From Planctomycetota bacterium (GTDB taxonomy: Bacteria; Planctomycetota; UBA11346), in assembly GCA_031382605.1 (NCBI GenBank), contig JANMYZ010000511.1:1-35989 (forward strand): 35,989 nucleotides of DNA, in the 5' to 3' direction. A model generated the notes under the pieces. It had not been told where the DNA came from. It saw only the letters and a program-made list of their open reading frames with translations, and searched no databases. Position numbers and translations under genes: made by a program. Position 1 is the first letter of the stretch; the number at the start of each line of letters is the position of its first letter. Positions 8,320 to 35,989 of this stretch are shown piece after piece.

Positions 8320-10122
8320 TCACTCCGCTGCCACCTCGCCTTGTTCGTAGGCTTGGTAGAGCTGGGCGTAGGCGCCACTTTGTGCCATCAAAGTGCGGTG
8401 ATCACCGATTTCCACAACGCGACCGTCACGAACAACGGCAATGCGATCGGCGTCGCGGATGGTGGCAAGGCGATGGGCAATGATGATCGCCGTGCGTCCG
8501 TGCGACAAACGCCGTAGCGCATGTTGGATGCGCGATTCGGTGTGAATGTCGACGGCAGAAGTCGCTTCGTCTAATACCAGCACGGCGGGATCGGCAAGAT
8601 ATGCACGCACCAAACACACTAACTGTCGTTGGCCGTGACTTAAATGCGCGCCCATCGGGCCGACTTCGGTTTGCCACGAGGCAGAGAGCCGTTCGAGCAC
8701 GTCGTCGGCGCCCAGGGCTTTCGCGGCGGCGATCAATTCGTCATCGGTCGCGCTTGGACGGGCAAGACGCAGATTGTCGAGCACGCTGCCGCTAAACAGA
8801 ATGTTGTCTTGTAACACCACGCCGACATGACGGCGCAAATCCTGCTGCGCCACGCTACGCACATCGTGGCCGTCCAGACGAACGGCACCCTGCTGAACAT
8901 CGTAAAATCGCGACAAGAGCTGAACCAACGTGCTTTTTCCGTGGCCGGTTGGTCCGACAATCGCCAACACTTCACCAGCGGGAATGGTCAGCGATAAATC
9001 ATGAATGACCGGACGCGCCGGGTCATAGCCGAACGTCACGTGATCAAAAGAAACCTCACCGTGGACCTGCGTCAACTGAAGCGGCGTTACTGGATCGATC
9101 ACCTCTGGCGCCGTATCGAGCAACAGAAAAACCCGTTGAGCAGAGGCGGCTCCGGTGGCAAAGCGTTCAAATAAATCGCCGAGCTCTTGCAGCGGTCCAA
9201 GGAAAACAAAAATGTAAAATACCGCCTGGGTTAATTGGCCCATGGTCAATTCATCGCGCTGCAAACCAATGCCACCGACGACCACTAAGATGGCTATCCC
9301 CGCCGTGAACAACAACGCCGCATACGGTTGAAACCAGCCCCAGCCCCAGGCCCCACGAATCGCGGTGCGATCCAGTTCATGCAAAAGCTTCTTATAGTGC
9401 GCGCGATTTGGCTGCTCTTGTGCCGTCTGCTGAATCACCCGAACGCCACCGACGGTTTCGACTAAATGCGCCGTCACATGGCTTTTCGCTTCGGCCACCC
9501 GCGCCCACAGCCGCATGCCCAGGCGTTGAAATGCCACCATGGCCAACAACAGCGCCGGCACTAAGCCGATCAGTGACCAGAACAATAATGGACTAATGAT
9601 CCACAATAGCGTACCCGCACCGACACAGCGTAATGCGGTAGAGGCCAGCTCTGGCGCAGCATGTACCACCAAAGGTTCGAGTGCCTCAACATCGCGATCG
9701 ACGCGAGCAACGATTCGTCCGGCCCGCGTGCGATCAAAATAGCGCACCGACAACGATTGCACATGCGCAAACAACTGGGCGCGTAAATCATTGAGCAAAC
9801 GAATGGAAATCGTCCCCTTCAGCCATTGGATGACGCCCGACAAGCCAAAACGCATCACCCACGTCAACGTTAGCCCAGCGCACATCCAGGCCACAAAACC
9901 AGCATCCAGAATCCAGCCGGACCCCTGCGGGATTAATCCGAAATCGATCACTTGGCGAATAAACCACGGACGAGCAAAAATCGAAGCGACTAAAACGACT
10001 TCAATGAAAACCACCAATGCGATGCGCCCGCGCACGGGTCGCAGCAAAGCAATAATGCGCCGCAACATTCGGCGATCGAGCCGTTTGCGCGCGAGCGCTT
10101 CTTCAATGTCGAGTTCGCTCAT
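8320..10122 (-). CDS. ABC exporter, fused permease/ATPase subunit (heterodimer partner 2)
   Basis: Six-TM N-terminal domain, Walker A GPTGHGKST, signature LSHGQRQ and Walker B VLVLDEATS. Confidence 0.93.
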   Translation of the reverse strand: MSELDIEEALARKRLDRRMLRRIIALLRPVRGRIALVVFIEVVLVASIFARPWFIRQVIDFGLIPQGSGWILDAGFVAWMCAGLTLTWVMRFGLSGVIQWLKGTISIRLLNDLRAQLFAHVQSLSVRYFDRTRAGRIVARVDRDVEALEPLVVHAAPELASTALRCVGAGTLLWIISPLLFWSLIGLVPALLLAMVAFQRLGMRLWARVAEAKSHVTAHLVETVGGVRVIQQTAQEQPNRAHYKKLLHELDRTAIRGAWGWGWFQPYAALLFTAGIAILVVVGGIGLQRDELTMGQLTQAVFYIFVFLGPLQELGDLFERFATGAASAQRVFLLLDTAPEVIDPVTPLQLTQVHGEVSFDHVTFGYDPARPVIHDLSLTIPAGEVLAIVGPTGHGKSTLVQLLSRFYDVQQGAVRLDGHDVRSVAQQDLRRHVGVVLQDNILFSGSVLDNLRLARPSATDDELIAAAKALGADDVLERLSASWQTEVGPMGAHLSHGQRQLVCLVRAYLADPAVLVLDEATSAVDIHTESRIQHALRRLSHGRTAIIIAHRLATIRDADRIAVVRDGRVVEIGDHRTLMAQSGAYAQLYQAYEQGEVAAE

Positions 10123-16805: not shown

Positions 16806-17159
16806 ATGCTAAAAATCTACACCTACAAAAGCTGCTCCACCTGCCGCAAGGCGGTCGCTCATCTCACCCGAGCGGGCAAGTCATTCGCTGAAGTGCCGAT
16901 TCGTGAAACGCCGCCGACGGTGGACGAACTCAAGCGCATGCTCACCGCGCTGGGTGGCGACATGAAGGCGTTGTTCAATCGCAGCGGCCAGGATTACCGC
17001 GCATTGAACCTCAAAGATAAACTTCCAACTATGAGCGAAGCCGAGGCGCTGAAGTTACTCAGCACCAACGGCAATTTAGTCCGCCGTCCATTCGCCTTCA
17101 TCGGCCGCAACGGGATCGTGGGATACGATGAAGTGGCGTGGGACGCTCAGTTGAAGTGA
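16806..17159 (+). CDS. ArsC/Spx/YffB-family thioredoxin-fold protein
   Basis: MLKIYTYKSCSTCRKA (CxxC near the N-terminus) and LVRRPF near the C-terminus. 117 aa. Confidence 0.87.
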   Translation: MLKIYTYKSCSTCRKAVAHLTRAGKSFAEVPIRETPPTVDELKRMLTALGGDMKALFNRSGQDYRALNLKDKLPTMSEAEALKLLSTNGNLVRRPFAFIGRNGIVGYDEVAWDAQLK

Positions 17160-17160
17160 T

Positions 17161-17337
17161 CCTAGAAAAAACAGTAGAGAACCATTTTACCGCTAAGCCG
17201 CAAAGAGCGCAAAGGACTTGCAGCAAAATTAAGCTTCACCTATTTGGTGAGGCCACTGCTCATTTAGATTTTGATTCGCACCTTTGCGTCTTTGCGCCTT
17301 TGCGGTGGAAGTTTTAATTCCTACTGCGGTTTCTAGG
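17161..17337 (+). mobile_element. Family-A MITE-like palindromic element, short variant
   Basis: Runs from cctagaaaaaacagtagagaacc to taattcctactgcggtttctagg. It begins 1 nt after TGA at 17157-17159. The flanks are gtgat (17156-17160) and gtgaa (17338-17342). Confidence 0.85.
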
Positions 17338-17349
17338 GTGAACATGACT

Positions 17350-19357: not shown

Positions 19358-19425
19358 GTGGACACACCATATACCGACGAGTGGTTTCTGCGCGAGGTAG
19401 GGATTCCCTCGCGCTGTGCGATTAG

Positions 19426-19859
19426 CCTAAAAACGCAGTAGAGAATCATTTTACCGCAATACCCCGTTTGGGCACTTAGCCGCCAAGAGCGCAAAGGACT
19501 TACAGCAAAAAATAAGAGGCTCTTCAGTGTTTCGTGTGGGTTCAATCTCATTGGACAGCCAAAGAAGAAAACATCGAACAGGAGACGCGGAGACGCAGAG
19601 ATCGGAGGAGGGTAAGATGCTTGCCGGAGAGAATATGCCTTTCACTCCTCTTACCTCCGCGTCTCCGCGCCTCCTGTTCGATTTTCTTCCCGCTTTGATG
19701 AGCCCCAAGGACGGAGAAAAGACCCACACTGAACGACGCAGAGCCAAATAAGACTCATCTGTTTAGTGAAGCCCTGATCATACGAAATTGAATTCAAAAT
19801 CCTGACTTTCCTCTGCCTCTTTGCGACTTTGCGGTGGAATTTTGAATTCCTACTGCCGC
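19426..19859 (+). mobile_element. Family-A MITE-like element interrupted by a nested second element; B-end terminus degenerate
   Basis: The A-end is cctaaaaacgcagtagagaatcattttaccgc. The B-half (19754-19859) matches the copy at 33198. The terminal gtttagg is missing, and the element ends 8 nt from the minus-strand TGA at 19868-19870. Confidence 0.85.
19518..19745. mobile_element. Family-B MITE-like element (228 bp) nested inside a family-A copy
   Basis: Flanked by a perfect 8-bp direct duplication aaataaga (19510-19517 and 19746-19753). Its ends are ggctcttcagtg...cgacgcagagcc (imperfect inverted repeats). It has a long internal palindrome, gaagaaaacatcgaacaggagacgcggagacgcagag paired with cctccgcgtctccgcgcctcctgttcgattttcttc. 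Confidence 0.85.
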
Positions 19860-22269: not shown

Positions 22270-24642
22270 TTATGGTCCAGCTTGCTCGGGCACGTAATTG
22301 ATGGTGTTGAAGATTTCTTGCTCAATCGCGGCACCATCGGCTGATTTAATTTTGAACTTGATCCGCATCTGCATGACGACCTGGGTTGGCATCTCCATAA
22401 ACACCGACTTCCCATCGGCTGACACGGTTAACCTGCTGATCTCGACCCGATCGTGGCCCTGATCTTTATCGCCAGTGCTGGGCTTGAATTCCGGGGAACC
22501 GTATTCGTTGGTCCACTTATAATTCCATTGCTCGATCGTGTAGTTTTCCCGATTTGCTGCCTCAGTCGGATTGAGTGTGCTTGAAAATGTCAGCGCAATC
22601 CCGTTCTTCTTCACCGCCAGGCCGGTAACGGAATTCAGGGCCTTGCCAGTGTAGCGGATGCGCTGCACGCCGCCCATTTTAGAGCCACTGGTCTGCCAAC
22701 CTTGCAGCCCAGCCAGATACAATTGGCCATCCTTGGGATTGACGCGACCGCGAGCGATGCCGGTGTTGAATTTAAGCGGGAACTGCACCGTGCCGCCCTG
22801 AAACCCGCAGCTCGTCGGGCTATCAGGAATTTTTTCCATCAGCACCAAATGCAACGTGCACTTGCCATAAGAAATATGCAGCAGGCGGTCAGCCAAGGGG
22901 CCCCATTGATTGCCCTTAGTTGACCACACTTGGCCGCCGTTGGAATTATCGACGTTCATCGGCGACCAATAAATTGGCCGCGTGTAATCGCTTGGCGGAG
23001 GGCTGGTATGTGCCAAGTCAGGCACGCCGATGAACAGCGGAATCTTGGTCGGCGGAATCGCCGTGACGCGACATGCCGGAGTCCACGTGCCTTGGTTGTC
23101 ACCGACGGTGACGATGTTATCTGGCCCGCCAAAAGCCGAGCCATTCGGCGCACGTACACCGGTGCCGATGATTTCCAGTTTAGCGCCGTCCTTGCTGACG
23201 CGCATAACCGTACCCGCGTGTTTGCTGATGGTTTCCCAGCCGCGTCCACCCGGGCGCACCGGGCCGCCCTTAGCGAAAATAAAATTGCCGTGGTTGTCGG
23301 TGTGCAGATCCAGCGCGAATTCGTGAAAATTTGGCGTGACGTGCATGTCGTTATTGAAATTTTCAAAGTAATCAGCCTCGCCGTCACCGTTCACATCGTG
23401 CAGACGGGTGATCTGATCGCGACCCAACGTATAGATGGTATCGTCGACGATTTTCAGGCCCAACGTTTGATAAAGCCCAGCCGCGTAGCGCTTCCAGACA
23501 ATTTTCTCAAGCTTGTCATCAAGGCCGCTGATCACCCACACATCACCGTTCCACGTCGACACCGCCGCACGACCATCGCGGAAGAAATCGATGCCACCCA
23601 GGCGCAGCCGTGAACCGTAGGGGTTGTCTTTTGCATCGGCAGGCGTGGTGATGGTGTCCACGACGTAGGCCGCATCGCCCGTGCCCAACGATCCTTTCAC
23701 CTCGACGGTTTCTTTCCATAACACCGGCCCGCCTTTGGTCAGCGTCGTCGGATCAACCGCTGGGGTCGCACCCGTGAGCGCGTCGGCGTCTTCGGCCATG
23801 ACCAACTTGAACACGCCTGCCGCTCCAGCGGGCACCTTCATTAAAATGCGCTCGCCATCGATCACCAACATCACCCCCGCAGGAGCGTCGATCAGCGTCG
23901 CAGCCAGTTGCTTGCCATCGCCACTGAGCGTTGCGATTCCTCCGTTGACGGCGCCCGCACCCTTGGGCAGATCGCTGACCACCATGGACGAGGCCGCAGC
24001 AAACTTGGCGAGCTTAAACGTGCGACTGATGGCTTTGCCATTGGTTTCCAATGCTGGCGTTTCCAACACCGCCGAACCACCGACGGTGTAGGAAAGCACG
24101 GTTTTTTCTCCGTTGAGATACACGCCTTTCCATTTCGCCCAATCGGCGGGCAACGGACCAAACGGTTCACTGCGTGGATCATGAAGCGTCTCGCCCTTCG
24201 ACCAGCCTGGGGCGACTTTGGTGCCAAAGAACTGCTTGCCCGCAACTTTGGGACCAGACTCGCCATGGCCACCGTCATAAGCAACGCCGCGCAGATTAAG
24301 GAAACCACCCGTCCAACCTGCGGAATAGCGCAGCAAATCCGTATCAAAACACACTCCGGCTTGAAGTCCTTCAACGCCGAATTTGGCCCCCAGATTTACC
24401 GCAACCCCCTTCATCGCGATATTCTTATCCGGCCATTGGGCCGTGATGGTGGCGGAGTGAATCGGACCCGTATCCATTTTTCGGAACCATTCTTTATTAT
24501 CTCGTTTTTTCTTCTCGGCTTCCGTCTTCTTTTCGGCTTCAAGCTTCTTTTTGTCCGTATCGCTTTGGCTATCCGCCGCACCAACCCAACAGGCCAGCAA
24601 TGGAATAAGGGCGAGCGAACGAACGAGGGTAAACAGTTTCAT
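22270..24642 (-). CDS. Secreted beta-propeller protein of the PVC 'membrane-bound dehydrogenase domain' type (glucose/sorbosone-dehydrogenase-like), without a heme domain
   Basis: The ATG at 24642 has aaggagg 7 nt upstream and gives the signal peptide MKLFTLVRSLALIPLLACWVGAA. Hallmark DVNGDGEADYFENFNND...FHEFALDL. No CxxCH anywhere. Confidence 0.82.
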   Translation of the reverse strand: MKLFTLVRSLALIPLLACWVGAADSQSDTDKKKLEAEKKTEAEKKKRDNKEWFRKMDTGPIHSATITAQWPDKNIAMKGVAVNLGAKFGVEGLQAGVCFDTDLLRYSAGWTGGFLNLRGVAYDGGHGESGPKVAGKQFFGTKVAPGWSKGETLHDPRSEPFGPLPADWAKWKGVYLNGEKTVLSYTVGGSAVLETPALETNGKAISRTFKLAKFAAASSMVVSDLPKGAGAVNGGIATLSGDGKQLAATLIDAPAGVMLVIDGERILMKVPAGAAGVFKLVMAEDADALTGATPAVDPTTLTKGGPVLWKETVEVKGSLGTGDAAYVVDTITTPADAKDNPYGSRLRLGGIDFFRDGRAAVSTWNGDVWVISGLDDKLEKIVWKRYAAGLYQTLGLKIVDDTIYTLGRDQITRLHDVNGDGEADYFENFNNDMHVTPNFHEFALDLHTDNHGNFIFAKGGPVRPGGRGWETISKHAGTVMRVSKDGAKLEIIGTGVRAPNGSAFGGPDNIVTVGDNQGTWTPACRVTAIPPTKIPLFIGVPDLAHTSPPPSDYTRPIYWSPMNVDNSNGGQVWSTKGNQWGPLADRLLHISYGKCTLHLVLMEKIPDSPTSCGFQGGTVQFPLKFNTGIARGRVNPKDGQLYLAGLQGWQTSGSKMGGVQRIRYTGKALNSVTGLAVKKNGIALTFSSTLNPTEAANRENYTIEQWNYKWTNEYGSPEFKPSTGDKDQGHDRVEISRLTVSADGKSVFMEMPTQVVMQMRIKFKIKSADGAAIEQEIFNTINYVPEQAGP

Positions 24643-24735
24643 AAGCGCAGCCTCCTTCACGGGGGACGATAAGAAACATGACATACCCCAACGTGGCCCT
24701 GACATTGACGACTATTTTACCACTCCACCTTTCAG

Positions 24736-24770
24736 CTGAAAAAACGCAGGAGAGAACCATTTTACCGCAA
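24736..24770 (+). mobile_element. Solo A-end fragment of the family-A element
   Basis: ctgaaaaaacgcaggagagaaccattttaccgcaa matches the first ~35 nt of the full copies, and the remainder is absent. It lies in the divergent intergenic region between the two paralogs. Confidence 0.5.
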
Positions 24771-24936
24771 CTGTTTTAGCGGTTACCGCGTGAAACCACA
24801 GTGCTCATCAACTTTTTTATCGTGTCACGGTATCATTGCTTGCTCACACTTTCCATTGACTTGATTGCCGCTCACAAAGATTGAATCCACAGTCCGCGCC
24901 TCAATCAAACCCATCAGTTACCAGTCCGAGGATTCT

Positions 24937-27162
24937 ATGTCATTCAAAGCTTATTGTGCTTATTGTGCCGTTGCGCTTACTCTTTTTACCAGCTCGCTCA
25001 TTCTTTGCGCCGAGGATAAAGCCGCTAAACAACCTTATCGTCAAATGGATTACGGCCCGAGTTTGAATTGGACGTACCAAGTCGCTGGTGATCACATCGT
25101 TTACAAAGGAATCGCCGTTCAAGTGGACGATGCAGCTGGTGGTATCGGCAAAGGTCATGCCTGGATGGTTTTTGATCACGACACGCTTTCGATGGCGGCC
25201 GCGTGGGTCACGCCAGAAGGATCGGACAAGGCACCGTTTATTGACTGGAAGGGTGTGGCCTTCGATAGCTCACACAGCAGCCATCCTTTCATTGCTGGTA
25301 AAACCGTTTTCGTCAATCGCCCAGGCCCTGGATATGCGTACCCTGCTAACGGCTCATTTGATGACCCGCGTTATGTCAGTCCTGTGGATCACAAAATGTA
25401 TGGTCCAATTCCTCGCGAATGGGCACATTTCCAGGGACTTTATCGTTCGGAAAATAAAGTCGTCATTGCTTATACTGTGGGGAAAACGTCAGTCCTTGAG
25501 TTGCCTGGCTATGATCGTTCATCCAGTATCTTCTCTCGTACTTTTTATATCGAAAAAAACGTCAAGCCATTGATCTTGCGCGTCGCGCCAGAAACGACGG
25601 CGGTGACAATTTCCGGTTTAGCTAGCTCTTCATTGAAAAAAAATAGCGGCTCATGGTTCCTCAATATACCGGCTTCAACCAAACCATTACGCTTTAAACT
25701 TATGCTCAGCGATGTTGCGCCGGCCGCCGCGGCCGTGAAAGACCAAGAAAAAATTGAGGAAATCGAACGGTTGTGTAAGGGCGGAAAGAGTGTCTGGACT
25801 GAGACGGTCACCACGACCATCGCCAAAGTCGAGAGCGGCCATGGCCTAACTTCTGAAACGTTGACGTTGCCCGACAATAACCCATGGAAATCATGGATTC
25901 GTACGGGTGGATTTGACTTTTTCGCCGATGGCAAGCGCGCGGCCGTGTGCACCTGGAGCGGAGACGTTTGGATGGTTAGTGGTGTTGACGGAGCCGTCGG
26001 CGCAGAACTTAAATGGAAACGCGTTGCCTCTGGTTTATTTCAAGCGCTTGGGGTTAAAATTGTCAACGACAAGATTTACGTTTCATGCCGCGATCAAATC
26101 GTGCGCTTAAATGATGTGAACGGCGACGGCGAAACTGACTTTTATGAGAACTTTAACAACGACCATCAGGTAACCGAGCACTTCCATGAATTTGCCATGG
26201 GACTGCAAGCCGACAAACAGGGTAATTTTTACTACGCTAAATCCGCTCGTCATGCTTTGCCGGGGCTTATTCCGCAACACGGCACGCTCATGCGCGTTTC
26301 GGCAGATGGAATGAAAAGTACCATCGTCGCCACCGGTTTTAGAGCGGCCAATGGCGTGTGCGTCAATGATGACGGCACCTTTTATGTCACCGATCAAGAG
26401 GGTCATTGGACGCCGAAGAACCGCATCAACTTGGTCAAAGAGGGTGGTTTTTATGGCAACATGAATACCTTGCTGCCCAAAGAACAGACTTCAGAAGATA
26501 GCGCGATGAACCAACCGCTAGTGTGGATAACCAACAACTGTGATCGTTCGCCTGGGGAACTCGTCAACGTTAAGAGTTCTCCTTGGGGCGACCTCAATGG
26601 AAAACTTCTCAACGTGTCGTATGGAACCGGACAAATCTTTTTAGTTTTGAAAGAAAGCGTTGGTCGCATGCAACAAGGCGGAGTCGTTCCGCTACCGCTA
26701 CGCTTTCCTACCGGCATTATGCGTGGCCGTTTCCACGCCAACGGTGATTTCTATGCCTGTGGTTTGGTTGGTTGGTCATCAAATACCAGCAAACCCGGTG
26801 GCTTCTACCGCATTAAATTGACCGATCCCCTTGATGTTCCCGTGAGCTTATCCGCAACCAAAAAAGGAATTATCGTCGGCTTCGCTCAAACGCTTGATAA
26901 GGAAACTGCGACGAGTACGGACGCTTACGTTATAAAAGCCTGGGACCTCAAACGTAGCGCGAATTACGGTTCCAACCACATCAACGAACATGCTTTAGAA
27001 ATCAGCGGAGTTGACCTCCTGCCAGATGGCAAGTCCGTGCTTATCAAAGCCGCCAACCTTGCGCCAACCTGGGGTATGTCGATTAAAATTCGCATCAAGA
27101 CTGCTGACGGCAAAGCCGTTGCGTGCGAGATCAATAATTCAATTTTCGCTTTGAAAGAATAA
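24937..27162 (+). CDS. Paralog of 22270..24642: secreted beta-propeller dehydrogenase-like protein, AT-richer
   Basis: The ATG at 24937 (gagga upstream) gives the signal-like MSFKAYCAYCAVALTLFTSSLILCAEDK. The ORF track starts at the TTG at 24865. It is collinear with the paralog, for example DVNGDGETDFYENFNND...FHEFAMGL and GDVWMVSG versus GDVWVISG. Confidence 0.82.
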   Translation: MSFKAYCAYCAVALTLFTSSLILCAEDKAAKQPYRQMDYGPSLNWTYQVAGDHIVYKGIAVQVDDAAGGIGKGHAWMVFDHDTLSMAAAWVTPEGSDKAPFIDWKGVAFDSSHSSHPFIAGKTVFVNRPGPGYAYPANGSFDDPRYVSPVDHKMYGPIPREWAHFQGLYRSENKVVIAYTVGKTSVLELPGYDRSSSIFSRTFYIEKNVKPLILRVAPETTAVTISGLASSSLKKNSGSWFLNIPASTKPLRFKLMLSDVAPAAAAVKDQEKIEEIERLCKGGKSVWTETVTTTIAKVESGHGLTSETLTLPDNNPWKSWIRTGGFDFFADGKRAAVCTWSGDVWMVSGVDGAVGAELKWKRVASGLFQALGVKIVNDKIYVSCRDQIVRLNDVNGDGETDFYENFNNDHQVTEHFHEFAMGLQADKQGNFYYAKSARHALPGLIPQHGTLMRVSADGMKSTIVATGFRAANGVCVNDDGTFYVTDQEGHWTPKNRINLVKEGGFYGNMNTLLPKEQTSEDSAMNQPLVWITNNCDRSPGELVNVKSSPWGDLNGKLLNVSYGTGQIFLVLKESVGRMQQGGVVPLPLRFPTGIMRGRFHANGDFYACGLVGWSSNTSKPGGFYRIKLTDPLDVPVSLSATKKGIIVGFAQTLDKETATSTDAYVIKAWDLKRSANYGSNHINEHALEISGVDLLPDGKSVLIKAANLAPTWGMSIKIRIKTADGKAVACEINNSIFALKE

Positions 27163-27167
27163 AGGAT

Positions 27168-27344
27168 AAATAAAGGACGGCGCGCCGGGCAGGCCGGCTA
27201 AGAGTTGGGGCTGCAAGACCATCACCCGTTTTCCCGGTGGATGGTCGGCAGCGGAAGTTGTCACTCGGCCTAGTGGTCACGATAAAAGACGCGACCATAG
27301 AGAGCGTCATCACATTGACTTCGCTCTAGAAAGGTGGCGAGACA
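27168..27344 (+). repeat. 177-bp direct repeat, copy A
   Basis: Identical to 30121..30297 except at 27175 (g/t) and 27259 (t/c). Starts 6 nt after the stop of the upstream gene. Confidence 0.95.
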
Positions 27345-27481
27345 AGACGGGGAAAGAAATGCGCACATCGTTTTTTTTGTGTCACTTTTCGTTGTTGTAT
27401 TATTTACAATAGTCGTCGTTGAGAGCGTGTAAATCGCAGGCCAGCTCACTGTCCTAGTCTAAGAAATAAAGGAATTACAAC

Positions 27482-30055
27482 ATGAATTTTATTAAACTTA
27501 TCCTCTTGGCTTTAGTAGCAAGTGCTCTTTGGGCTGTGGGTGTGCCGAGCGCTTACGGAGAGACCGTCAGCCTGGTCTCGGTCGGATCAGATGGCATGCT
27601 TAAATATGGGCTCTACGCCAACCAGGGGCAGTCCAATGTCGTGAACCGACTGCCGGATTTCTCCCGCGCAGGCTATCAGGGCGGCGGTGTTCCAATTCCG
27701 TTCGTGCCCGCAGTGATCACCGTGTCTCCTGGGCCGGGCGACAATAGGATTCTAATTCAAAACGCCATCGACGCGGTTTCCTTGAGAGCCTTGGAGGCAA
27801 ACGGATTTCGCGGTGCCGTGCTGTTGAAAGCGGGAACTTATGAGGTTGGCAGCGCGCTGATCATCAATGCTAGCGGTGTGGTGTTGCGTGGTGAAGGGTC
27901 GCAAGCTGTCGGCGGAACAAGGATTGTCCTTACGGCAACTCAGTCTGGAAATCTCATCGAGGCTAGAAAAAGTGTTACTTTAATAGAAGTCGTAGAAACG
28001 CGCAGGCCGATTAGCCAAAGTTACGTTCCCGTCGGGGCCATATCGTTTACCGTGAATTCGGCGGCCAACTATCGTGTTGGTGATAAGATTATAGTGCATA
28101 GAAAAACCAATGATAATTGGATCACAGATCTAAAAATGAACGACTTTGGCTGGACAGCGAGTAACTATCAAGGACGCTATCGTCGAGTTATTACCGCCAT
28201 CACTGGGGACACGATTTCCATCGATGCGCCGATTGTTCAAGTCATCGAGGATAAGTACGGTGGAGGCGACATCTACCAGTACACTAAGTCGACATTATTT
28301 GAAAATGTAGGCATTGAAGCCTTGCGCCTTGAATCGACTTATGTCAGTGGCGAAGATGATAAACACGGAAAATTTGCCTGTGTGTTAGAGGGCGTAGAGA
28401 ATGGTTGGGTGAGACAGGTTACCGCCGTGCATTTTTCAAATACCTGCGTCAGCATCAATAACGCTAGTCATCAGATTACCATTGAAGATTGCGCGCAACT
28501 TGACCCGAAGGGTCCCATAGTAGGCGGCTGGAGGTACTCCTTCAATTTGGACGATTGTTCATACGTATTAACGCAACGCTGCTACGCCGAATCCGGGAGG
28601 CATGATTATGTCAGCGGTAGTCAAACGCCTGGGCCGAACGCGTTTGTAGATTGTGTCGCACATGACACCAAGAGTGATAGTGGGCCGCACCATCGGTATT
28701 CTACCGGGCAAATTTACGACAACATCAACTGCGGAGAGTTGAATGTCCAGAACCGTAGAGGTTCTGGGAGTGGCCACGGTTGGGCAGGTGCTCAAATCCT
28801 CTTCTGGAATTGTAAGGGTAATTCGATCTGCGACGCGCCGTTAGGCGCCATGAACTGGTCGGTGGGTTTTGACGGACAGCACAGTGAAAGCTCTTTCTCT
28901 CCAGACGAGCCCGATGGCATATGGCAATCCCACAACACCCGGGTCGCGCCTCGCTCACTTTACCAGGCGCAACTCAAGGAACGCATGGGGAAAACGGCCT
29001 TGCGCAACGTAATCCTGCCCATGCAAGCCGTGGGTACGATCTGGCCAAGCCTAGCTAGTTGGGCTGGTAACGGACTCTTCGGTGATCAAGTTATCGTTTG
29101 GGAAGACGATGCGGTCGTGTCACCGCCAAACGTGAAAACCGTTTATGGTACTGTGCGGAATCTACAAATGCTTGATAGTGGTATCGTTTGTTCGTGGACG
29201 AAAGTGTCAGGACCGGGCACGGTCTTATTTGCAGCTGCCACATCTTTAAGGACAACGGCTATATTTTCTAGCGCTGGCACCTACGTGCTGCGTCTGGTCG
29301 CCAGTGGTGGAACGCGGACTGTCATTGTTGATGTGTCCATAACCGCGTCGGGGGCACCCGTGAATGTAGCGCCACAGGTGAATGCTGGCGCTGATAAATC
29401 ACTGACATTACCAGCGTCGGCAAGCTTAGTCGGCACCGCGAGTGATGATGGCTTGCCAAGTGGCTCAACGTTGACGACGATGTGGTCAAAAGTGAGCGGC
29501 CCAGGCACAGTGACCTTTGCCAATGCGAGTGCAAAATCGACCACAGCTACGTTCTCGGGGGCTGGTACTTATGTGCTGCGCTTGACGGCCAGTGATGGCA
29601 CGCTTCCGTCTACCGATGACATGTCCGTAACGGTAATCGAGTCTGGCGGCGGCGTCACGGCGCCACCTAAACCAGCGGCGCCAACTACGTCAGGCGATGG
29701 AACCGCGACTCCAACCATATCGGGCGATACGACCGCAGGAGCAACCGTGCATATCTTTATAGATGGAACGGAAGTCGACACTGTCATCGCCGGTTCAGAT
29801 GGGAAATGGACCTATCCGATAACCGGTTTGCCTGCTGGCACGCACACGATCACGGTCACGTCTCAAAATGCTGGGGGCACATCTGACCTCAGCAGTCCAA
29901 CGACCATCACTGTTGTCGCTACCGGCGTTAGCACACCGCCCGCTAGTGACAAAGGCGGCAGCCGCTGCGGATTGGGCGGGTTATCGGCGAGTTTATTTAT
30001 GCTGTTTTTCGCCTTTGTGATATTTACGCAAAGAGTTGTCCAGAATAACAGATGA
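27482..30055 (+). CDS. Secreted or cell-surface right-handed beta-helix (pectate-lyase-superfamily-like) protein with two PKD-like repeats, an Ig-like domain and a C-terminal Gly-rich/TM/basic tail
   Basis: Signal peptide MNFIKLILLALVASALWAVG. N-terminal block ILIQNAIDAV...GAVLLKAGTYEVGSALIINASGVVLRGEG. Tandem repeats W(T/S)KVSGPGTV.F..A....T.A.FS.AGTYVLRL.AS. Tail GGSRCGLGGLSASLFMLFFAFVIFTQRVVQNNR. Confidence 0.85.
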   Translation: MNFIKLILLALVASALWAVGVPSAYGETVSLVSVGSDGMLKYGLYANQGQSNVVNRLPDFSRAGYQGGGVPIPFVPAVITVSPGPGDNRILIQNAIDAVSLRALEANGFRGAVLLKAGTYEVGSALIINASGVVLRGEGSQAVGGTRIVLTATQSGNLIEARKSVTLIEVVETRRPISQSYVPVGAISFTVNSAANYRVGDKIIVHRKTNDNWITDLKMNDFGWTASNYQGRYRRVITAITGDTISIDAPIVQVIEDKYGGGDIYQYTKSTLFENVGIEALRLESTYVSGEDDKHGKFACVLEGVENGWVRQVTAVHFSNTCVSINNASHQITIEDCAQLDPKGPIVGGWRYSFNLDDCSYVLTQRCYAESGRHDYVSGSQTPGPNAFVDCVAHDTKSDSGPHHRYSTGQIYDNINCGELNVQNRRGSGSGHGWAGAQILFWNCKGNSICDAPLGAMNWSVGFDGQHSESSFSPDEPDGIWQSHNTRVAPRSLYQAQLKERMGKTALRNVILPMQAVGTIWPSLASWAGNGLFGDQVIVWEDDAVVSPPNVKTVYGTVRNLQMLDSGIVCSWTKVSGPGTVLFAAATSLRTTAIFSSAGTYVLRLVASGGTRTVIVDVSITASGAPVNVAPQVNAGADKSLTLPASASLVGTASDDGLPSGSTLTTMWSKVSGPGTVTFANASAKSTTATFSGAGTYVLRLTASDGTLPSTDDMSVTVIESGGGVTAPPKPAAPTTSGDGTATPTISGDTTAGATVHIFIDGTEVDTVIAGSDGKWTYPITGLPAGTHTITVTSQNAGGTSDLSSPTTITVVATGVSTPPASDKGGSRCGLGGLSASLFMLFFAFVIFTQRVVQNNR

Positions 30056-30120
30056 TTGGTGGAAAAATCGACATGAATAATCGCGGTTAGGGCGGGAGCT
30101 GGAGCTGTGGGCCAAAGAAA

Positions 30121-30297
30121 AAATAAATGACGGCGCGCCGGGCAGGCCGGCTAAGAGTTGGGGCTGCAAGACCATCACCCGTTTTCCCGGTGGATGGTCG
30201 GCAGCGGAAGTCGTCACTCGGCCTAGTGGTCACGATAAAAGACGCGACCATAGAGAGCGTCATCACATTGACTTCGCTCTAGAAAGGTGGCGAGACA
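30121..30297 (+). repeat. 177-bp direct repeat, copy B
   Basis: 175/177 identical to 27168..27344, at an offset of exactly 2953 bp. Confidence 0.95.
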
Positions 30298-30480
30298 TTC
30301 TTTGTTTTCTGCGTCCTCCATTATTTAAAAAACTGGGTTGTTTGGGTACGCTGCGGACGCTATGGCCATGGGCCAACGAGCAGCAGCGCCGGATGCACAT
30401 CAGATCGCAGTCGCACCAGGTGGCGGCGATTGCACCAGGGAATCGTGCCACCATCGTCCTCGCCCACGAATGGACATCCT

Positions 30481-32157
30481 ATGAGCAAAAAATCGCAAAA
30501 AACCGAGCGCAAAAAGAAGAAACGCCAAGAGCGCATTCGGCAGGAAAAACATCAGCGTCACTTGACGCCCGCTGTGCCGTCGTTCTGGGACACCGATGTG
30601 CCCGTGCGGAAAGACCCCCGCCGGTCGATGGACATCGAGCGTTGGTTACGTGGCCATGCGCAGCGCACCGGACAGTGGGTGGTGGGCATGCCGGAATTGG
30701 CGCAGGCCCTGAATGCAAGTAAGTCGAATCCGGTGGTGGGTCCTGGAGAGCTTGCCGGCGCGCCAGCCGTGGAACGCGCGCAGGAACTGGCGTTCCAGTG
30801 CATGGAGACAGACGATGACGATGCAGCGGCGATCCTGGCGCGGGCCGCGTTAGAGATTGATGCAGCTAACCTGGATGCACGGCGGACGTTGATCATCTAT
30901 GAGGCCGCTGGCGATCCGGATGCCTGCTACCGTCGGCTGCAGGGTCTGTTAGATGAGGCCGGCTCGACGCTCGATCAGGCGCTGGTCGCCGCGACGACAG
31001 GGCAGCTCAGTCGTCTGCTGAGTGCTCGGCCATTCCTGCGGGTGCTGCAAGGCCTGATGATTAAGGCGGCGCAGCAGCACGATCTGGAGCGCCTGGCGCC
31101 CGTGATGAAGAGCTACGTCGGCTTCGATCAAGCGAGTTGCTGGGTGGCGGTCGGGCGCGCGTTGAAGCTCCTGAATCAGGATGAACGTTGGGATTGCGCG
31201 GCACGACTGCGGGACTTGGTGATCGCTGACGGTGTCAGTCGATGGATGCTCGATGGCCTGTTGGCACTGCGCGGGGGCGATCGTCGCGCCGCCGGCGATC
31301 AGATTCGCCAAGCGGTTGTGCGGAATCCACTTTTACGTCAGCAATTGCAGGATGCTGGCAGCAGCCCGATCTCTGAGCTGGGGTACGAGGCAACCACCCT
31401 CGCCAACGGCCTTGAACCGCTGATCAATGATCTGCCGGATTTCCCCGACTGGCTGGCCGATGGCATGCCATGGATGGACCAAGCGGCGATCGACCGTGCG
31501 CTGAAGGCCTATGCTAAGCCGCTGTCAAACTTGCTGGCTCTGGGCCAATCGGCCATCGACGAGATCGACTACGTTCAGAGATATGGCATCGGGCCGCAGC
31601 ACCGCGAACCACTCGAACAAATGCTGAAGGATCCGGTCTTCCAGCAGGTGGGCCCGACCGATCCGGAGGTCTTCGCGACGATGCATGCGTGGCGTGCGCT
31701 CGGCCAGATTGGCGACCAACGCAGTCTGCCGGTATTGTTTTCCGTATTGTTGGACCCGGATGCCGGCGACTGGGACTATGAGGAACTGCCGGAAATCATC
31801 GGGCGTTTCGCTGCCGCCGCCCTGCCGAGCACGCTCAAAGAACACCGCGTACGCCTCGCCGACCCAGATGGAAATGAGACCCTGCTGTGGGCGTTACAAC
31901 GCATCCTGGCGCTCATCGCCAAACGTGACCCGGAGTCGCGCGGCGCAGTGATCGACTGCCTCCGCGCCGTGGTGACTGACCCGCAGATGCACCTCATCAC
32001 CACGCGAGCATCGGCGATCGCCAGCCTGAGCGAGTTGCGCGCGGTTGAATGCTTGCCCTGCATCGAACAAGCCTACGCCGACGGAATGGTCGACATCGGC
32101 TACGTCGGTCTGTCGTCCGTTCGCGAGCAGATGGCCAAGGGAGAGGTCGACGGTTGA
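30481..32157 (+). CDS. GC-rich hypothetical protein with polybasic N-terminus and C-terminal HEAT/PBS-lyase-like repeats (DUF1186-like impression)
   Basis: I chose the ATG at 30481 (MSKKSQKTERKKKKRQERIRQEKHQRH) over the TTG at 30430. C-terminal repeats include WRALGQIGDQRSLPVLFSVLLDPD and ASAIASLSELRAVECLPCIEQAY. Confidence 0.72.
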   Translation: MSKKSQKTERKKKKRQERIRQEKHQRHLTPAVPSFWDTDVPVRKDPRRSMDIERWLRGHAQRTGQWVVGMPELAQALNASKSNPVVGPGELAGAPAVERAQELAFQCMETDDDDAAAILARAALEIDAANLDARRTLIIYEAAGDPDACYRRLQGLLDEAGSTLDQALVAATTGQLSRLLSARPFLRVLQGLMIKAAQQHDLERLAPVMKSYVGFDQASCWVAVGRALKLLNQDERWDCAARLRDLVIADGVSRWMLDGLLALRGGDRRAAGDQIRQAVVRNPLLRQQLQDAGSSPISELGYEATTLANGLEPLINDLPDFPDWLADGMPWMDQAAIDRALKAYAKPLSNLLALGQSAIDEIDYVQRYGIGPQHREPLEQMLKDPVFQQVGPTDPEVFATMHAWRALGQIGDQRSLPVLFSVLLDPDAGDWDYEELPEIIGRFAAAALPSTLKEHRVRLADPDGNETLLWALQRILALIAKRDPESRGAVIDCLRAVVTDPQMHLITTRASAIASLSELRAVECLPCIEQAYADGMVDIGYVGLSSVREQMAKGEVDG

Positions 32158-32158
32158 A

Positions 32159-32345
32159 CCTAAAAAACGCAGTAGAGAACCATTTTACCGCTAAGCCGCA
32201 AAGAGCGCAAAGGACTTACAGCAAAATTAAGCTTTACCCGTTTGGTGAAGCCATTGATCATCTCAATTTTGATTCAAACCTTTGCTTTTCTTGGCGTCTT
32301 TGCGCCTTAGCGGTGGAAGTTTGAATTCCTATTGCGGTTTTTAGG
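32159..32345 (+). mobile_element. Family-A MITE-like palindromic element, short variant (reference copy)
   Basis: TIRs are cctaaaaaacgcagtag and ctattgcggtttttagg, with about 15 of the first 17 positions complementary. Perfect 5-bp duplication ttgaa at 32154-32158 and 32346-32350, and the left copy contains the TGA stop at 32155-32157. Confidence 0.9.
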
Positions 32346-32490
32346 TTGAAGTCCCCGGAGGCCTGACTGATGACAACGATGACCGTCAGACGACCGGCCA
32401 TTTGGGCGCGTATCGACCGGACCATAACCATGGACGGACAACCACGGACGAGTTTGGCCGACACGATTCCGCACGTCGGCTGGAATCTGA

Positions 32491-33040: not shown

Positions 33041-33197
33041 CGCCGTCCGGTGCGGCCATGCAGGTGGCGACCCACGAATTGACGCAGATTTCGCTGCGTA
33101 GCGGCGCTAGCTTGGAGGCGCTGACGGTGATCCGTACGGTGACGGATCGTTATGCGAAAAATAATATCTGGACAGCCGAGCATCGTGAACGTTTGAG

Positions 33198-33385
33198 CCT
33201 AAAAAACGCAGTAGAGAACCATTTTACCGCAAAGCAGCAAAGAGCGCAAAGGACTTACATCAAAAACAAGATTCATCTGTTTGGTGAAGTCCTTGATCAT
33301 ACGAAATTGAGTTCAAAACCCTGCCTTTCCTTTGTGTCTTTGCGTCTTTGCGTTGGAAATTTGAATTCCTACTGCCGCGTTTAGG
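33198..33385 (+). mobile_element. Family-A MITE-like element, variant B-half
   Basis: Perfect 5-bp duplication ttgag at 33193-33197 and 33386-33390. 138/139 identical to the reverse complement of 35851..35989. Confidence 0.9.
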
Positions 33386-33677
33386 TTGAGTTCGAGGATA
33401 TTCCTGAACATCCACTCGACGCGGATACGCGTCGTTGCGTACAACGCGTTGACCGGTCGATAGCCATTGAGTTTCCAGATGCTCTGGTAGCAGAAATAGC
33501 GGGCGAAAACCGGACGAAAGTTTGGATCGTTCTCAGAAGCAGCATTCTTGTGGGCGGCGGAAAGGCCATTGCCGCCAACACCTTGGTGATTATTTTCTGC
33601 GCCGCGTTCATTCCGCCGGCGATAAATACGAACGACAAAAGTTGTATTTTGAAGCCGCGTTTCCATGCAGGGTACCC

Positions 33678-35849
33678 ATGATCATTCTCCCGCTCCGCCC
33701 CGAGACCAACGAGCGGTACGCTCCCATCGGCACGATCGCCATGATGCTGGTCAACGTGCTCGTCCACGTCATCTGGGGGCGCGGTGATCCTGTCGCGCTG
33801 GAGCCGTACCTGCTCGACTTTCAGTCCGTCCAGCCGCTGCAGTGGCTGACCTCGGCGTTCCTGCACGCCGATTGGATGCATCTGATCGGTAACCTCGTCT
33901 TTCTCTACGTCTTCGGGGCCTTGGTTGAAGATTTCCTTGGGCGCTGGTTCGTGCCAGCTTACTTGTTTCTGGCCCTCGCCAGCGGCGCGCTGGAGCAGGG
34001 CCTGTGCCTGCTCGAAAACAGGGAGGGACACGCGCTGGGTGCCAGCTCGGCGATCTATGGCTTGATCGCGATGGCGACCCTGTGGGCGCCGCGCACCCAC
34101 ATCTCGACCTTCGTCTGGTTCATCGTCATCCGCCGACCGCAGGTGATGCCGATCCGCGTGATGTGGCTGGCGGGGTACTTTATGGTGCTGCAGATCATCA
34201 CGGTTTTGCTCACGAATGGCGAGCCCAGCTCGGAGTTTCTGCACGCCTGCGGCATCGCTGCCGGTCTTGTGCTGGGCTTCCTCTGCCTGCACCAGCGTTG
34301 GATCGATACTGATGGCGAAGACGTCCTGGCCACCGGTCCCAAGCGCGGCGCCAAGTCGGCCATCGTCGTGCCCACCGTGACGTGGGATGAACAGGCCGCG
34401 CGGCTCGACGCTGCTGCCGCCGCTGGGCAATGCCGCGTCGCGCTGGCCGCCTACGAGGTTTTGCGCCGCGAATATCCGGCGCGCCTGCCGAGCATGTCGG
34501 TGCTCGAACGCCTGATGGAGCTGTGCGAGGAGTCGCTGGATTTCCACCGTGCTGCCGCGATCGCCGATCGCGCCCTGGCCGCTGGCCCGGTCAGCGACGT
34601 CCTGCTGCTGCGCTACGCGCGCGTCAGCGGCGTGCACCAGGGCAATGTCGACGCCGGCCTGGCCATGGTCGCCACCATCGACGTGAATCAGCTGCCCGAG
34701 GACGTCCGTGGCGAACTGGCCCAGCTCAGCACTCGTCTGGAGCGGCGCCGCCGGCCTGGGGCGCCCATCACCACCCGGATCGCTCACATGCTGCTGGTGG
34801 TCTTGCTGTTGGGTGGCCTGGGTGCCCGGACATATGCAGAGGAGCAGAACGCGGCGGAACTGCACCCGCTCACTGGCCGCGTCGTGCTTGCGGGCGGTGC
34901 TGCGATCACGCTCACGCAGAGTTCCGTCTACGTCACCTGGAGCGACCTGAGCCAATTCCTGGCCCTGCCGCCGACACCGACACCGGCTGCGGGCGAGGAA
35001 CCGCTGGGCGTGATTTTTCCGGCGCAAGCCATCGAAGCGATGTACGAGCAGCGCGAGCGCAACGGTTCACCCGATGCGTGGCAACAGCGGTCGCAACAGG
35101 CCATAATGTGCCTCGGCGCCATCCAGGTGTTCTGGGCCGATGGCTGGATCGACTTGTCGCAGCCGCTGCCATCTGCCGCACAGTTGCTCGCCGATTTCCA
35201 GTTCCAAGCGCAGGTGATCAGCAACCGTCACCTGCTGGGACCTGGGGTCTCGCTCACCTACGATGGCTTCGGCCAGGAACCGGTGCTCAACGCCAGGGAC
35301 GGCACGCTCGCCTGGTCGATCCGCCTGCAGATCCTTGGCCAGGGCATACTCGCCGAGCACGCCCACCATTCTTGCCATCTTGGAGCCAGGGGCGTCCTGG
35401 CCCTGATCTGCGAAGACGTGGAGGTCTCGGACCCGTCCATCCGGCACCTGAAAACTGCCGACCTGATGCAGAAGGCTGCCAGCCAGATCAGCTGGGAACC
35501 GAAGAGCGGTTACACGACCACTCTGCCTGACGGCGTGGGCGAGCGCACCGGCGGCTTCCGACGATTAATGCAACCGCGCCTGACCTTCGGCCACGACACC
35601 GATGAGCTGGATTTTCACCGTGGTCTCGGCTTCGTCTGGATCGTGATCCTGCTGCCGTTGGGCGCCGTCCTGTTCCTCATCTGGCGCTGGGTCACCAAGA
35701 CCATGCAGCCGCCGGTTCGCACCAGCGCGGTGACGAGCAGTGCGGTGACCAGTGACGTCAACCGTTGTCCCGCCTGCGGCAGCCCCGTGACGGTGGCGAC
35801 GCCGCGCTGCGTGGCGTGCGGGACCAGCCTGATCCGGCGCTCCGGGTGA
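33678..35849 (+). CDS. Rhomboid-family intramembrane serine protease fused to a helical (TPR-like) segment, an extra TM, a ~250-aa DUF2167-like domain, a further TM and a C-terminal zinc ribbon
   Basis: I chose the ATG at 33678 (MIILPLRPE). Rhomboid motifs are HADWMHLIGNLVFLYVFG, the catalytic-Ser motif GASSAIYGLIAM and the catalytic-His helix HACGIAAGLVLG. The C-terminus has CPACGSPVTVATPRCVACG. Confidence 0.85.
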   Translation: MIILPLRPETNERYAPIGTIAMMLVNVLVHVIWGRGDPVALEPYLLDFQSVQPLQWLTSAFLHADWMHLIGNLVFLYVFGALVEDFLGRWFVPAYLFLALASGALEQGLCLLENREGHALGASSAIYGLIAMATLWAPRTHISTFVWFIVIRRPQVMPIRVMWLAGYFMVLQIITVLLTNGEPSSEFLHACGIAAGLVLGFLCLHQRWIDTDGEDVLATGPKRGAKSAIVVPTVTWDEQAARLDAAAAAGQCRVALAAYEVLRREYPARLPSMSVLERLMELCEESLDFHRAAAIADRALAAGPVSDVLLLRYARVSGVHQGNVDAGLAMVATIDVNQLPEDVRGELAQLSTRLERRRRPGAPITTRIAHMLLVVLLLGGLGARTYAEEQNAAELHPLTGRVVLAGGAAITLTQSSVYVTWSDLSQFLALPPTPTPAAGEEPLGVIFPAQAIEAMYEQRERNGSPDAWQQRSQQAIMCLGAIQVFWADGWIDLSQPLPSAAQLLADFQFQAQVISNRHLLGPGVSLTYDGFGQEPVLNARDGTLAWSIRLQILGQGILAEHAHHSCHLGARGVLALICEDVEVSDPSIRHLKTADLMQKAASQISWEPKSGYTTTLPDGVGERTGGFRRLMQPRLTFGHDTDELDFHRGLGFVWIVILLPLGAVLFLIWRWVTKTMQPPVRTSAVTSSAVTSDVNRCPACGSPVTVATPRCVACGTSLIRRSG

Positions 35850-35850
35850 T

Positions 35851-35989
35851 CCTAAACGCGGCAGTAGGAATTCAAATTTCCAACGCAAAGACGCAAAGAC
35901 ACAAAGGAAAGGCAGGGTTTTGAATTCAATTTCGTATGATCAAGGACTTCACCAAACAGATGAATCTTGTTTTTGATGTAAGTCCTTTG
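35851..35989 (-). mobile_element. Family-A MITE-like element, inverted orientation, cut by the window edge
   Basis: Begins 1 nt after TGA at 35847-35849 with the B-end cctaaacgcggcagtaggaattc. 138/139 identical to the reverse complement of the copy at 33198. Confidence 0.9.

Follow-up and report, generated by a model that had tools for sequence, protein, structure and literature searches.

R and its position

Two nearly identical direct copies of a short non-coding segment, here called R, bracket one gene, gene2, within the window (the whole stretch of 35,989 nucleotides that was analysed). Tentatively, at a probability of about 45%, we read R-gene2-R as a young, lineage-specific duplication that was formed when gene2 was inserted and is now homogenised by recombination. 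The features on which this reading depends are the following.

24937..27162, plus strand: gene1, 741 aa, with DUF6797 and a beta-propeller-like region
27161..27344 (core 27168-27344), plus strand: R-A, adjoining the gene1 stop codon
27217..27246, unstranded: hairpin in R-A, GACCATCACCCG/CGGTGGATGGTC, invariant
27345..27481, plus strand: spacer between R-A and gene2, unique, with a T8-T10 tract (27376-27383) whose length differs between strains
27482..30055, plus strand: gene2, 857 aa, the sole gene between the R copies
30114..30297 (core 30121-30297), plus strand: R-B, starting 58 nt past the gene2 stop and ending 183 nt before the gene3 ATG
30124..30125, unstranded: breakpoint in L055, a strain 99.2% identical
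30481..32157, plus strand: gene3, 558 aa, HEAT repeats

BLAST gave the same figure as the original prediction for the two 177-bp copies, 175/177 identical positions (27168-27344 versus 30121-30297), the mismatches being G/T at 27175/30128 and T/C at 27259/30212. A longer version of the pair shares 180/184 positions (27161-27344 versus 30114-30297; 97.8% identity, E 1.8e-86 in a BLAST self-comparison of the window). The offset from R-A to R-B is 2953 bp in direct orientation, and the window contains exactly two occurrences of a 33-mer taken from R, versus 0 expected from shuffles. At the left end, the A-rich first 11 nt of the two copies are 9/11 identical. The 3' edge is sharp, ...GGCGAGACA being followed by AGACGGGG after one copy and by TTCTTTGT after the other. 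Beyond R the sequences are unrelated: local alignment of the 200-nt flanks, upstream and downstream, scored 17 versus 16.1+/-2.2 and 15.8+/-2.2 for shuffles, which upholds the earlier exclusion of a simple tandem duplication. The idea that gene1 and R were duplicated together in tandem long ago was also considered and rejected; the gene1 and gene2 proteins are unrelated, there is no diagonal enrichment near 2953 and the flanks do not align.

The 184-nt R-A overlaps the last two bases of the gene1 stop codon (27160-27162), and R-B lies 58-65 nt from the gene2 stop (30055). The repeats had been placed 6 and 65 nt 3' of the genes ending at 27162 and 30055, and these positions were confirmed. Seen from the other side, the copies lie 137 nt upstream of gene2 and 183 nt upstream of gene3. 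Two more invariant hairpins, GGTCACG..CGCGACC and AGAGCG..CGCTCT, were located in R, and all the hairpins of R-A are present again in R-B, shifted by +2953 nt. A plus-strand frame across R is open for 58 codons. ORFs derived from R were absent among 1.84 billion proteins searched with phmmer; the sole match to the R frame was weak (E 6e-5) and fell on a repeated Calx/Ig-like module of a 2350-aa protein. R is a non-coding, hairpin-rich segment of 177-184 bp, in two direct copies around gene2.

Genes and other repeats in the window

The host is an uncultured PVC-group bacterium in which the R copies bracket one secreted-enzyme gene. Gene1, gene2 and gene3 are all co-directional. The gene2 protein has PKD and Ig-like domains and weak matches to beta-helix and lyase families; its N-terminus resembles a signal peptide and its C-terminus is a hydrophobic tail. 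These domain matches and predicted ends agree with the original assignment and support secretion, a beta-helix, PKD and Ig-like make-up and a putative hydrophobic anchor at the C-terminus; the protein is probably a polysaccharide-active surface enzyme. Pfam scans of all large ORFs found no integrase, transposase or other recombinase in the 36 kb window, and it holds no tRNA or tmRNA. A MITE-like repeat family, S, crowds the window, and its copies also abut stop codons; R and S are unrelated to each other. Since the window is full of this interspersed intergenic family, the genome has active small mobile repeats.

Distribution of R in strains, relatives and sequence collections

The order gene1-R-gene2-R-gene3 was found in six independent assemblies (the window, L001, L002, L003, L025 and L026), which come from different samples and represent strains at least 99% identical. 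R-X-R is not the accident of one assembly. In this small sample, none of the contigs carries the deletion allele gene1-R-gene3; those crossing R-A (the window, L001, L002, L025 and L026) all enter gene2. No R-gene2 circle was seen among the retrieved contigs. Contigs built by MEGAHIT and Logan stop within R, as is to be expected of a repeat exceeding k. An artefact is conceivable in which the chromosome reads gene1-R-gene3 and gene2 sits on a separate R-bearing circle, or in which R was collapsed or mis-threaded: the de Bruijn graph is the same with or without the circle, R (177 nt) exceeds the typical k, and every MEGAHIT or Logan contig breaks in it. However, 6/6 assemblies from different samples thread gene1-R-gene2-R-gene3 and 0 thread gene1-R-gene3, and the markers specific to each copy (positions 5, 7 and 15) are always linked to the proper flank, which makes such an artefact very improbable.

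Outside this group of strains R disappears. In gene1 orthologs (L017-L020; 82-87% nucleotide identity) similarity stops exactly at the stop codon and R is absent. A gene3 ortholog (L029, 91.5% nucleotide identity) has no R upstream, its homology starting at 30422, about 60 nt before the start codon, and the nearest gene2 homolog (L016, 65% amino acid identity) lies in another context, again without R. Judged from these alignments, the stretch 27163-30421 is lineage-specific as a whole. The alternative offered with the original prediction, in which neighbouring cassettes would share a conserved 3' element, does not hold here, relatives of all three genes being devoid of R. No empty site was identified either: gene1 and gene3 are never neighbours in the relatives retrieved (L016-L020 and L029), and the gene1 orthologs, the gene3 ortholog and the gene2 homolog each lie in a different neighbourhood.

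Searches for further copies gave the same picture. With nhmmer, R was found only at sites A and B in 456 kb of fetched DNA, a total to which related lineages contribute 85 kb and the rest of the window 33 kb. R was absent from GTDB species genomes (exact 21-mer scan; one chance match inside an ORF, no extension), from JGI metagenomes (exact 19-mer scan; four chance matches) and from IMG/VR contigs (16-mer scan; 25 chance matches, 0 of which extend), and it had no blastn match in plasmids and phages. As to whether R marks other gene boundaries, the relatives and collections scanned hold no third copy.

Exchange between the two copies

The haplotypes at R-A/R-B are H1/H1 in the window and L003, H2/H2 in L002 and L025, and H3/H2 in L001 and L026; in L025 position 15 is converted as well. 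H1 and H2 are each found at both sites, and both copies carry the same haplotype in 4/6 strains, although part of the identity within an assembly could be due to repeat collapse, R exceeding the read k-mers in length; positions 48-54 of R are near enough to unique flank for phasing. Because haplotypes are common to both sites and usually match within a strain, the data point to gene conversion between R-A and R-B. The idea that homologous recombination can act between the repeats is borne out by this haplotype exchange, in the form of conversion and with no deletion observed.

Among 5 strains gene2 is the least diverse, with 6 of 2574 nt variable versus 17 of 2226 in gene1, which fits a recent arrival or a sweep. 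Polymorphism is above that of the genes in R-A (3.3%) and R-B (1.6%), and reaches 2.9% and 1.1% in the unique spacers. The higher values in R could reflect conversion from unseen R copies, but the unique spacers are equally variable. The gene3 allele of L001 is 8% divergent from about 30478 on.

R compared with known element classes

R has none of the marks looked for in a transposable element or an att/attC site (terminal inverted repeats, target-site duplications, core sites, tRNA). No inverted repeat of the MITE type joins its ends, the first 40 nt scoring 4 against the reverse-complemented last 40 nt versus 5.2+/-1.1 for shuffles. Its flanks (TAAAGGATAAAT/AGACGGGGAAAG and CAAAGAAAAAAT/TTCTTTGTTTTC) show no target-site duplication. 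A REP/REPIN identity is not indicated, as the window lacks Y1 and RAYT genes and R is a 177-184 nt unit of differing hairpins. For an IS200/IS605-derived PATE, the lack of terminal inverted repeats and target-site duplications and the shared A-rich left flank (9/11) are compatible; no tnpA or tnpB is present in the window. Nor does R resemble a diversity-generating retroelement: the window has no reverse transcriptase, R does not encode protein, and its copies differ by G/T and T/C substitutions, not adenine-based ones.

The main rival reading, at odds well below even, is that R is a low-copy, non-autonomous interspersed element (REP/BOX-like or an IS200/IS605-derived, PATE-like one) of which two independent insertions, at similar A-rich sites (AAAGRAWAAAT^), would happen to flank gene2. 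Several stable hairpins (folding energy below shuffles, z = -2.7 on the plus strand and -4.3 on the minus strand), the single sharp end with the shared 5' flank, and a start at a stop codon, as in the S copies, all suit such an element, and the substitutions in R come in pairs, which other copies could have supplied. The L055 contig (Ga0456293_0020375) is colinear with the window to 30124 and then continues into 115 nt of unrelated sequence, so that the break falls exactly at the left edge of R-B. However, what follows the breakpoint in L055 differs from the sequence downstream of R-B, and L055 does not represent a plain empty site. Against the interspersed element stand also the presence of two copies only, in the same orientation around the same gene, the 0 copies in the rest of the window (33 kb), the 85 kb of relatives and the collections scanned, and the lack of a Y1/RAYT transposase in the window.

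Two successive gene-repeat pairs with a common orientation recall the attC sites of integron cassettes or the attL/attR pair of a small integrative element. The core sites RYYYAAC and GTTRRRY are however absent from both strands of R, the R ends are not complementary, and the 177 nt of R exceed the length of attC sites. Gene2 spans 2.6 kb and has an upstream region of its own (137 nt). No IntI appeared in the Pfam scans of large window ORFs; the window lacks intI, any tyrosine or serine recombinase and any tRNA gene, and the unit holds gene2 alone, with no integrase and no tRNA/tmRNA in the window to serve an attL/attR element. On this sequence evidence the att reading has next to no probability and appears effectively refuted.

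R as a possible RNA module

Operons of E. coli carry intercistronic REP structures, and R resembles these in lying between co-directional genes. It might be a cis-acting RNA module duplicated for its usefulness, acting on gene1 and gene2 from the 3' UTR (as a stabiliser, processing site or terminator) or on gene2 and gene3 as a 5' leader. Predicted folding energies lower than those of shuffles on both strands are in line with this, as are three hairpins invariant in 14/14 copies examined. However, Rfam 15 gave no match at gathering thresholds across the window and none even at E<=10 over 27100-27500, no R hairpin is followed by a U-tract, and promoter and terminator scans detected nothing at R, with fewer sites overall than in shuffles. 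The 6 variable positions among the 14 R copies are too few for covariation; they lie mostly in predicted pairs, 0 are compensatory and several break pairs, H2 costing 3-8 kcal/mol. Strain variation in R equals that of the unique spacers, and the gene1 and gene3 orthologs function without R. We regard an RNA role as unlikely.

Proposed origin of R-gene2-R

Under the young-duplication reading, the second R copy would have been created by the same event that brought gene2. A DNA circle carrying R and gene2 may have entered a resident R by a single crossover, in a Campbell-like manner, or an equivalent duplicative insertion may have occurred. From then on R-A and R-B would be substrates of RecA-type homologous recombination: non-crossover gene conversion would keep the copies alike, and a crossover between them would lead to exact deletion or amplification of gene2. 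What the sequences show directly is the structure, its occurrence in several strains, its absence from relatives and public collections, and the haplotypes common to both copies; the insertion mechanism, the dependence on RecA and the potential for deletion and amplification are inferred. Direct repeats around a unique segment, with unrelated flanks beyond R, are what a Campbell-type event would leave, and such an origin is possible though unproven; the resident-R step lacks direct support because no single-R strain and no R-gene2 circle was found.

A bolder version would make R-gene2-R an integrase-free cassette moved by homologous recombination alone, with R as a portable stretch of homology or landing pad and possibly also a 3'-UTR RNA module; an R-gene2 circle would loop out and re-enter any strain with a resident R, which would then be a structured element previously undescribed in PVC bacteria. 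We consider this quite improbable. Of the mobile cassette put forward in the original prediction, what stands is one accessory gene enclosed by R in direct R-X-R form, whereas the circle, the deletion allele, a third R and a nearby recombinase were all absent from the material searched. The outcome that had been named as pointing to a fixed duplication, R absent elsewhere, a shared R-X-R and conversion, is largely what was found at the strain level. Because R is absent elsewhere, the strains share the same R-X-R and the copies appear to undergo conversion, the sequence comparisons speak for a young duplication that has become fixed rather than for a cassette of demonstrable mobility. R seems a fairly ordinary young local repeat, and nothing shows gene2 to be a mobile cassette.

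Comparison with known repeat systems

The closest parallels are Campbell-type single-crossover integrants and repeat-flanked units that can be amplified or deleted, such as the type II amplifiable units of DNA (AUD) of Streptomyces. As in these, direct R copies bracket a unique insert, and 177 nt suffices for RecA-mediated conversion, deletion and amplification. Unlike them, R showed no circle, single-repeat allele or amplified array, and it is much shorter than typical AUD repeats and non-coding. Integron cassettes share with R-gene2-R a layout in which every gene has a related structured repeat behind it, always in one orientation, but the core sites, the integrase, the cassette size and the promoterless layout are missing here.

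Small bacterial intergenic repeats, namely REP/BIME/REPIN, BOX, ERIC and MITEs, have been reviewed (PMC3184786), REPINs have been described (PMC3116915) and REPs reach >100 copies per genome (PMC2817692). R is likewise non-coding, hairpin-rich, intergenic and stop-codon-abutting, and a bona fide MITE-like family occupies the same window. In contrast, R has two known copies, no terminal inverted repeats or target-site duplications and no RAYT or transposase found, and it is far longer than a REP (20-40 nt). The rrn operons of E. coli undergo concerted evolution through gene conversion (PMC8022953). R behaves similarly in that variant haplotypes occur at both copies, with a tendency to identity within strains and difference between them, but it is a 177-nt non-coding segment without demonstrated function or known selection for homogeneity.

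The R finding opens no long-standing question. If the young-duplication reading is true, R-gene2-R would illustrate cleanly how a gene insertion can create a short non-coding duplication in nature, and would show concerted evolution across co-occurring metagenome strains; gene2 could then be lost or amplified in a single recombination step. In practical terms, R and the nearby MITE-like family fragment the short-read assemblies of this organism, and several MAG contigs end exactly in R or in MITE-like repeats.

Arrangement of the repeat copies around gene2

The gene for a secreted beta-helix/PKD/Ig-like protein (gene2) is bracketed by two direct copies of a non-coding repeat, R, in the following order:

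24937-27162, gene1
27161-27344, R-A (R copy at site A)
27345-27481, spacer A
27482-30055, gene2
30114-30297, R-B (R copy at site B)
between R-B and gene3, spacer B
30481-32157, gene3 (HEAT repeats)

A repeat search of the window gave copies of 184 nt each with 98% identity and an offset of 2953 nt. BLAST confirmed the 175/177 identical positions of the original prediction (E 1.8e-86 in the self-comparison), and a 33-mer from R occurred exactly twice, with 0 occurrences expected by chance. The 3' edge of R is abrupt, at GGCGAGACA, and the 5' edge is gradual, passing through an A-rich 11-mer (AAAGGATAAAT vs AAAGAAAAAAT, 9/11 identical) that in copy A shares the last two bases of the gene1 TAA. 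Flanking sequence, 200 nt on each side of the copies, aligned no better than shuffled sequence, and the gene1 and gene2 proteins are unrelated. R is therefore a direct repeat of the dispersed kind and, as originally proposed, no simple tandem duplication.

The exact gene2 protein was present on 10 contigs, and further contigs were reached via gene1 variants. The gene1-R-gene2-R-gene3 order was found in six assemblies from different samples, the window and five same-species strains (L001, GCA_031363605.1; L002; L003; L025; L026, GCA_043777475.1), each sharing 99% identity or more with the window; an assembly artefact fails explicit tests. MEGAHIT k141 contigs and Logan unitigs break off within R, and one contig (L021, GCA_031415975.1) terminates at the last base of R-A, as expected for a true repeat longer than k.

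Origin of the R-gene2-R structure

The best-supported reading, to which we give a probability of roughly 0.45, is a young, lineage-specific non-coding duplication made with the insertion of gene2 and homogenised since by homologous recombination. A circle bearing R plus gene2 would integrate by a single crossover at a resident R, the copies would afterwards be homogenised by homologous recombination, and a crossover between them could delete or amplify gene2. In its behaviour R resembles a Campbell-type duplication or repeat-flanked deletable unit. The Campbell-type origin first suggested is the simplest way known to arrive at a sharp R-X-R structure, but none of the contigs recovered threads gene1-R-gene3, and no deletion or amplification allele of gene2 was seen among them.

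Similarity to gene1 ended at its stop codon in 4/4 relatives (DNA identity 82% in L017, 87% in L020, 74% in L019 and 70% in L018), with unrelated sequence beyond and different genes beside gene1. A gene3 ortholog in another relative, L029, is 91.5% identical, starting at window position 30422, with other repeats and a different gene upstream, and the closest gene2 homolog outside the species (only 65% identical) belongs to a polysaccharide-utilisation-like locus that has no R. Since homology stops at the gene1 stop and resumes at 30422, with gene2 so distant from its homolog, block 27163-30421 is specific to this species-level lineage. Gene1 and gene3 do not adjoin each other in the relatives, so synteny there offered no clean empty site.

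The region from ~24600 to 30400 (gene1, R, gene2, R) has a GC content of 0.47-0.55 vs 0.56-0.65 in the flanks, and on the right it ends where similarity to relatives sets in again (30422). Very few proteins belong to the gene3 family (11 at E<=1e-20), and upstream of the L029 ortholog, at 8650-8790 and 8930-8975, are tandem arrays of TTCGGCGCGTAGTAC (~6 units) and CCTCTCACCG (~4 units).

Strain variation and recombination

Fourteen R copies from seven assemblies differed at six internal positions, in three haplotypes.

R haplotypes and their distribution (site A/site B)
H1: G48, C51, C54, C92
H2: C51A, C54T
H3: G48A, C92A
H1/H1: window, L003
H2/H2: L002, L025
H3/H2: L001, L026

H1 and H2 were each seen at both sites and the copies agree within 4/6 strains; such haplotype sharing is the signature of gene conversion, which probably occurs between the R copies. 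In L025 a copy-specific marker at R position 15 was also converted. Assembly collapse is an unlikely cause of the agreement because positions 48-54, at most about 55 nt from the unique left flank, can be phased by k-mers and reads, although it may hold for positions 92 and 99. Like rrn operons and other dispersed repeats (PMC8022953), R shows concerted evolution.

Variable sites among five strains
gene1: 0.76%
R-A: 3.3%
spacer A: 2.9%
gene2: 0.23%
R-B: 1.6%
spacer B: 1.1%

R evolves at the pace of unconstrained spacers, and gene2 is the least diverse element. Upstream of gene2, a poly-T tract (27376-27383) varies from T8 to T10 among strains and might be a phase-variable or expression-tuning tract.

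The L001 gene3 allele is 8% divergent (about 92% identical) from ~30478 (window 30478-31727 vs L001 10165-11414), whereas the sequence upstream, R-B and its spacer included, is >99% identical to the window, which suggests a homologous-recombination breakpoint at the gene3 start. A JGI contig (L055, Ga0456293_0020375) is 99.2% identical to window 28745-30124 and then carries, at 1372-1486, 115 nt of unrelated sequence that begins at the R-B left edge (between 30124 and 30125) and matches nothing fetched. As only about one k-mer of the new sequence precedes the contig end, this tail would most simply be an insertion of another repeated element (IS-type); it could also be an alternative context for gene2.

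Nature and distribution of R

R has a GC content of 0.56 and several predicted hairpins on both strands (plus, -68.7 kcal/mol, z = -2.7; minus, -69.2 kcal/mol, z = -4.3). Foldability would suit a cis-acting RNA, but nothing else speaks positively for that reading, which we consider improbable: R polymorphisms are not compensatory in predicted folds, H2 loses 3-8 kcal/mol in them, Rfam gave no match even at E<=10, and no hairpin plus U-tract was found in R.

The main rival, itself rather unlikely, takes R for an intergenic element of low copy number, similar to REP, BOX or PATE, that has further copies in the unsampled genome. An unrelated MITE-like family in the window, S, which also starts at stop codons, favours it, and R is like small intergenic repeats (PMC3184786, PMC3116915, PMC2817692) in where it lies and in its hairpins, but has neither the ends that define them nor their known copy number. 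R has no terminal inverted repeats and its copies no target-site duplication. Exact scans of GTDB species genomes (21-mers), JGI metagenomes (19-mers) and IMG/VR (16-mers) returned only chance matches, none extending, and nothing in plasmid and phage collections matched R. With nhmmer, run on the window and 55 fetched loci (456 kb in all), R occurred at sites A and B only. None of the databases searched contained this sequence family, but features of its kind are already familiar.

The plus-strand frame across R (27170-27343) is open for 58 codons without a start codon. Among 1.84 billion proteins, phmmer with the 58-aa translation found no R-derived ORFs at other loci and one weak, repeat-inflated match (E 6e-5), to repeated Calx/Ig-like modules in a 2350-aa protein (P0290). 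This similarity is probably chance, though R could descend from a coding fragment.

Three further candidates failed explicit tests: an integron/attC element (no attC core motifs in R, no integrase in the window), an att site (no integrase or tRNA in the window) and a DGR. Nor does the window hold a transposase.

Other contents of the window

The other genes are ordinary chromosomal ones (ABC exporters, histidine kinase, PBP4-type peptidase, K+ channel, PLD, cytochromes c), and NCBIfam matches to a PVC-type haem-binding family, together with named homologs, assign the organism to the PVC superphylum. The gene2 C-terminus (GGSRCGLGGLSASLFMLFFAFVIFTQRVVQNNR, 29930-30055) resembles a GlyGly-CTERM sorting tail in having a Gly-rich motif and, after it, a hydrophobic helix and basic amino acids. 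Encoded 3.5 kb downstream of gene2 (33522-35849) is a rhomboid-domain protein of 775 aa, whose match to rhombosortase is weak (26.5 bits, cutoff 84).

The S repeats (~190 nt) are interspersed and intergenic, with copies 70-99% identical, at least six of them in the window, and clear terminal inverted repeats, TGA(N)CCTAAAAAACGCAGTAGAG / CTACTGCGGTTTTTAGG(N)TCA; by these features the family looks like a MITE. Copies begin at stop codons, e.g. that of gene3 (32155-32157), and the contig end falls within one.

S repeat sequences
Copies: 1884-2110, 17157-17342, 32150-32350, 33189-33389, 35851-35989 (minus strand)
Fragments: 481-531, 19424-19511, 19742-19859, 24727-24770
Copy in a relative: L029 5147-5336

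A third repeat type, a long imperfect palindrome (19564-19689; self-inverted, 76% over 132 nt), interrupts an S copy and has related copies at L029 7209-7291, 7423-7679 and 8832-8965.
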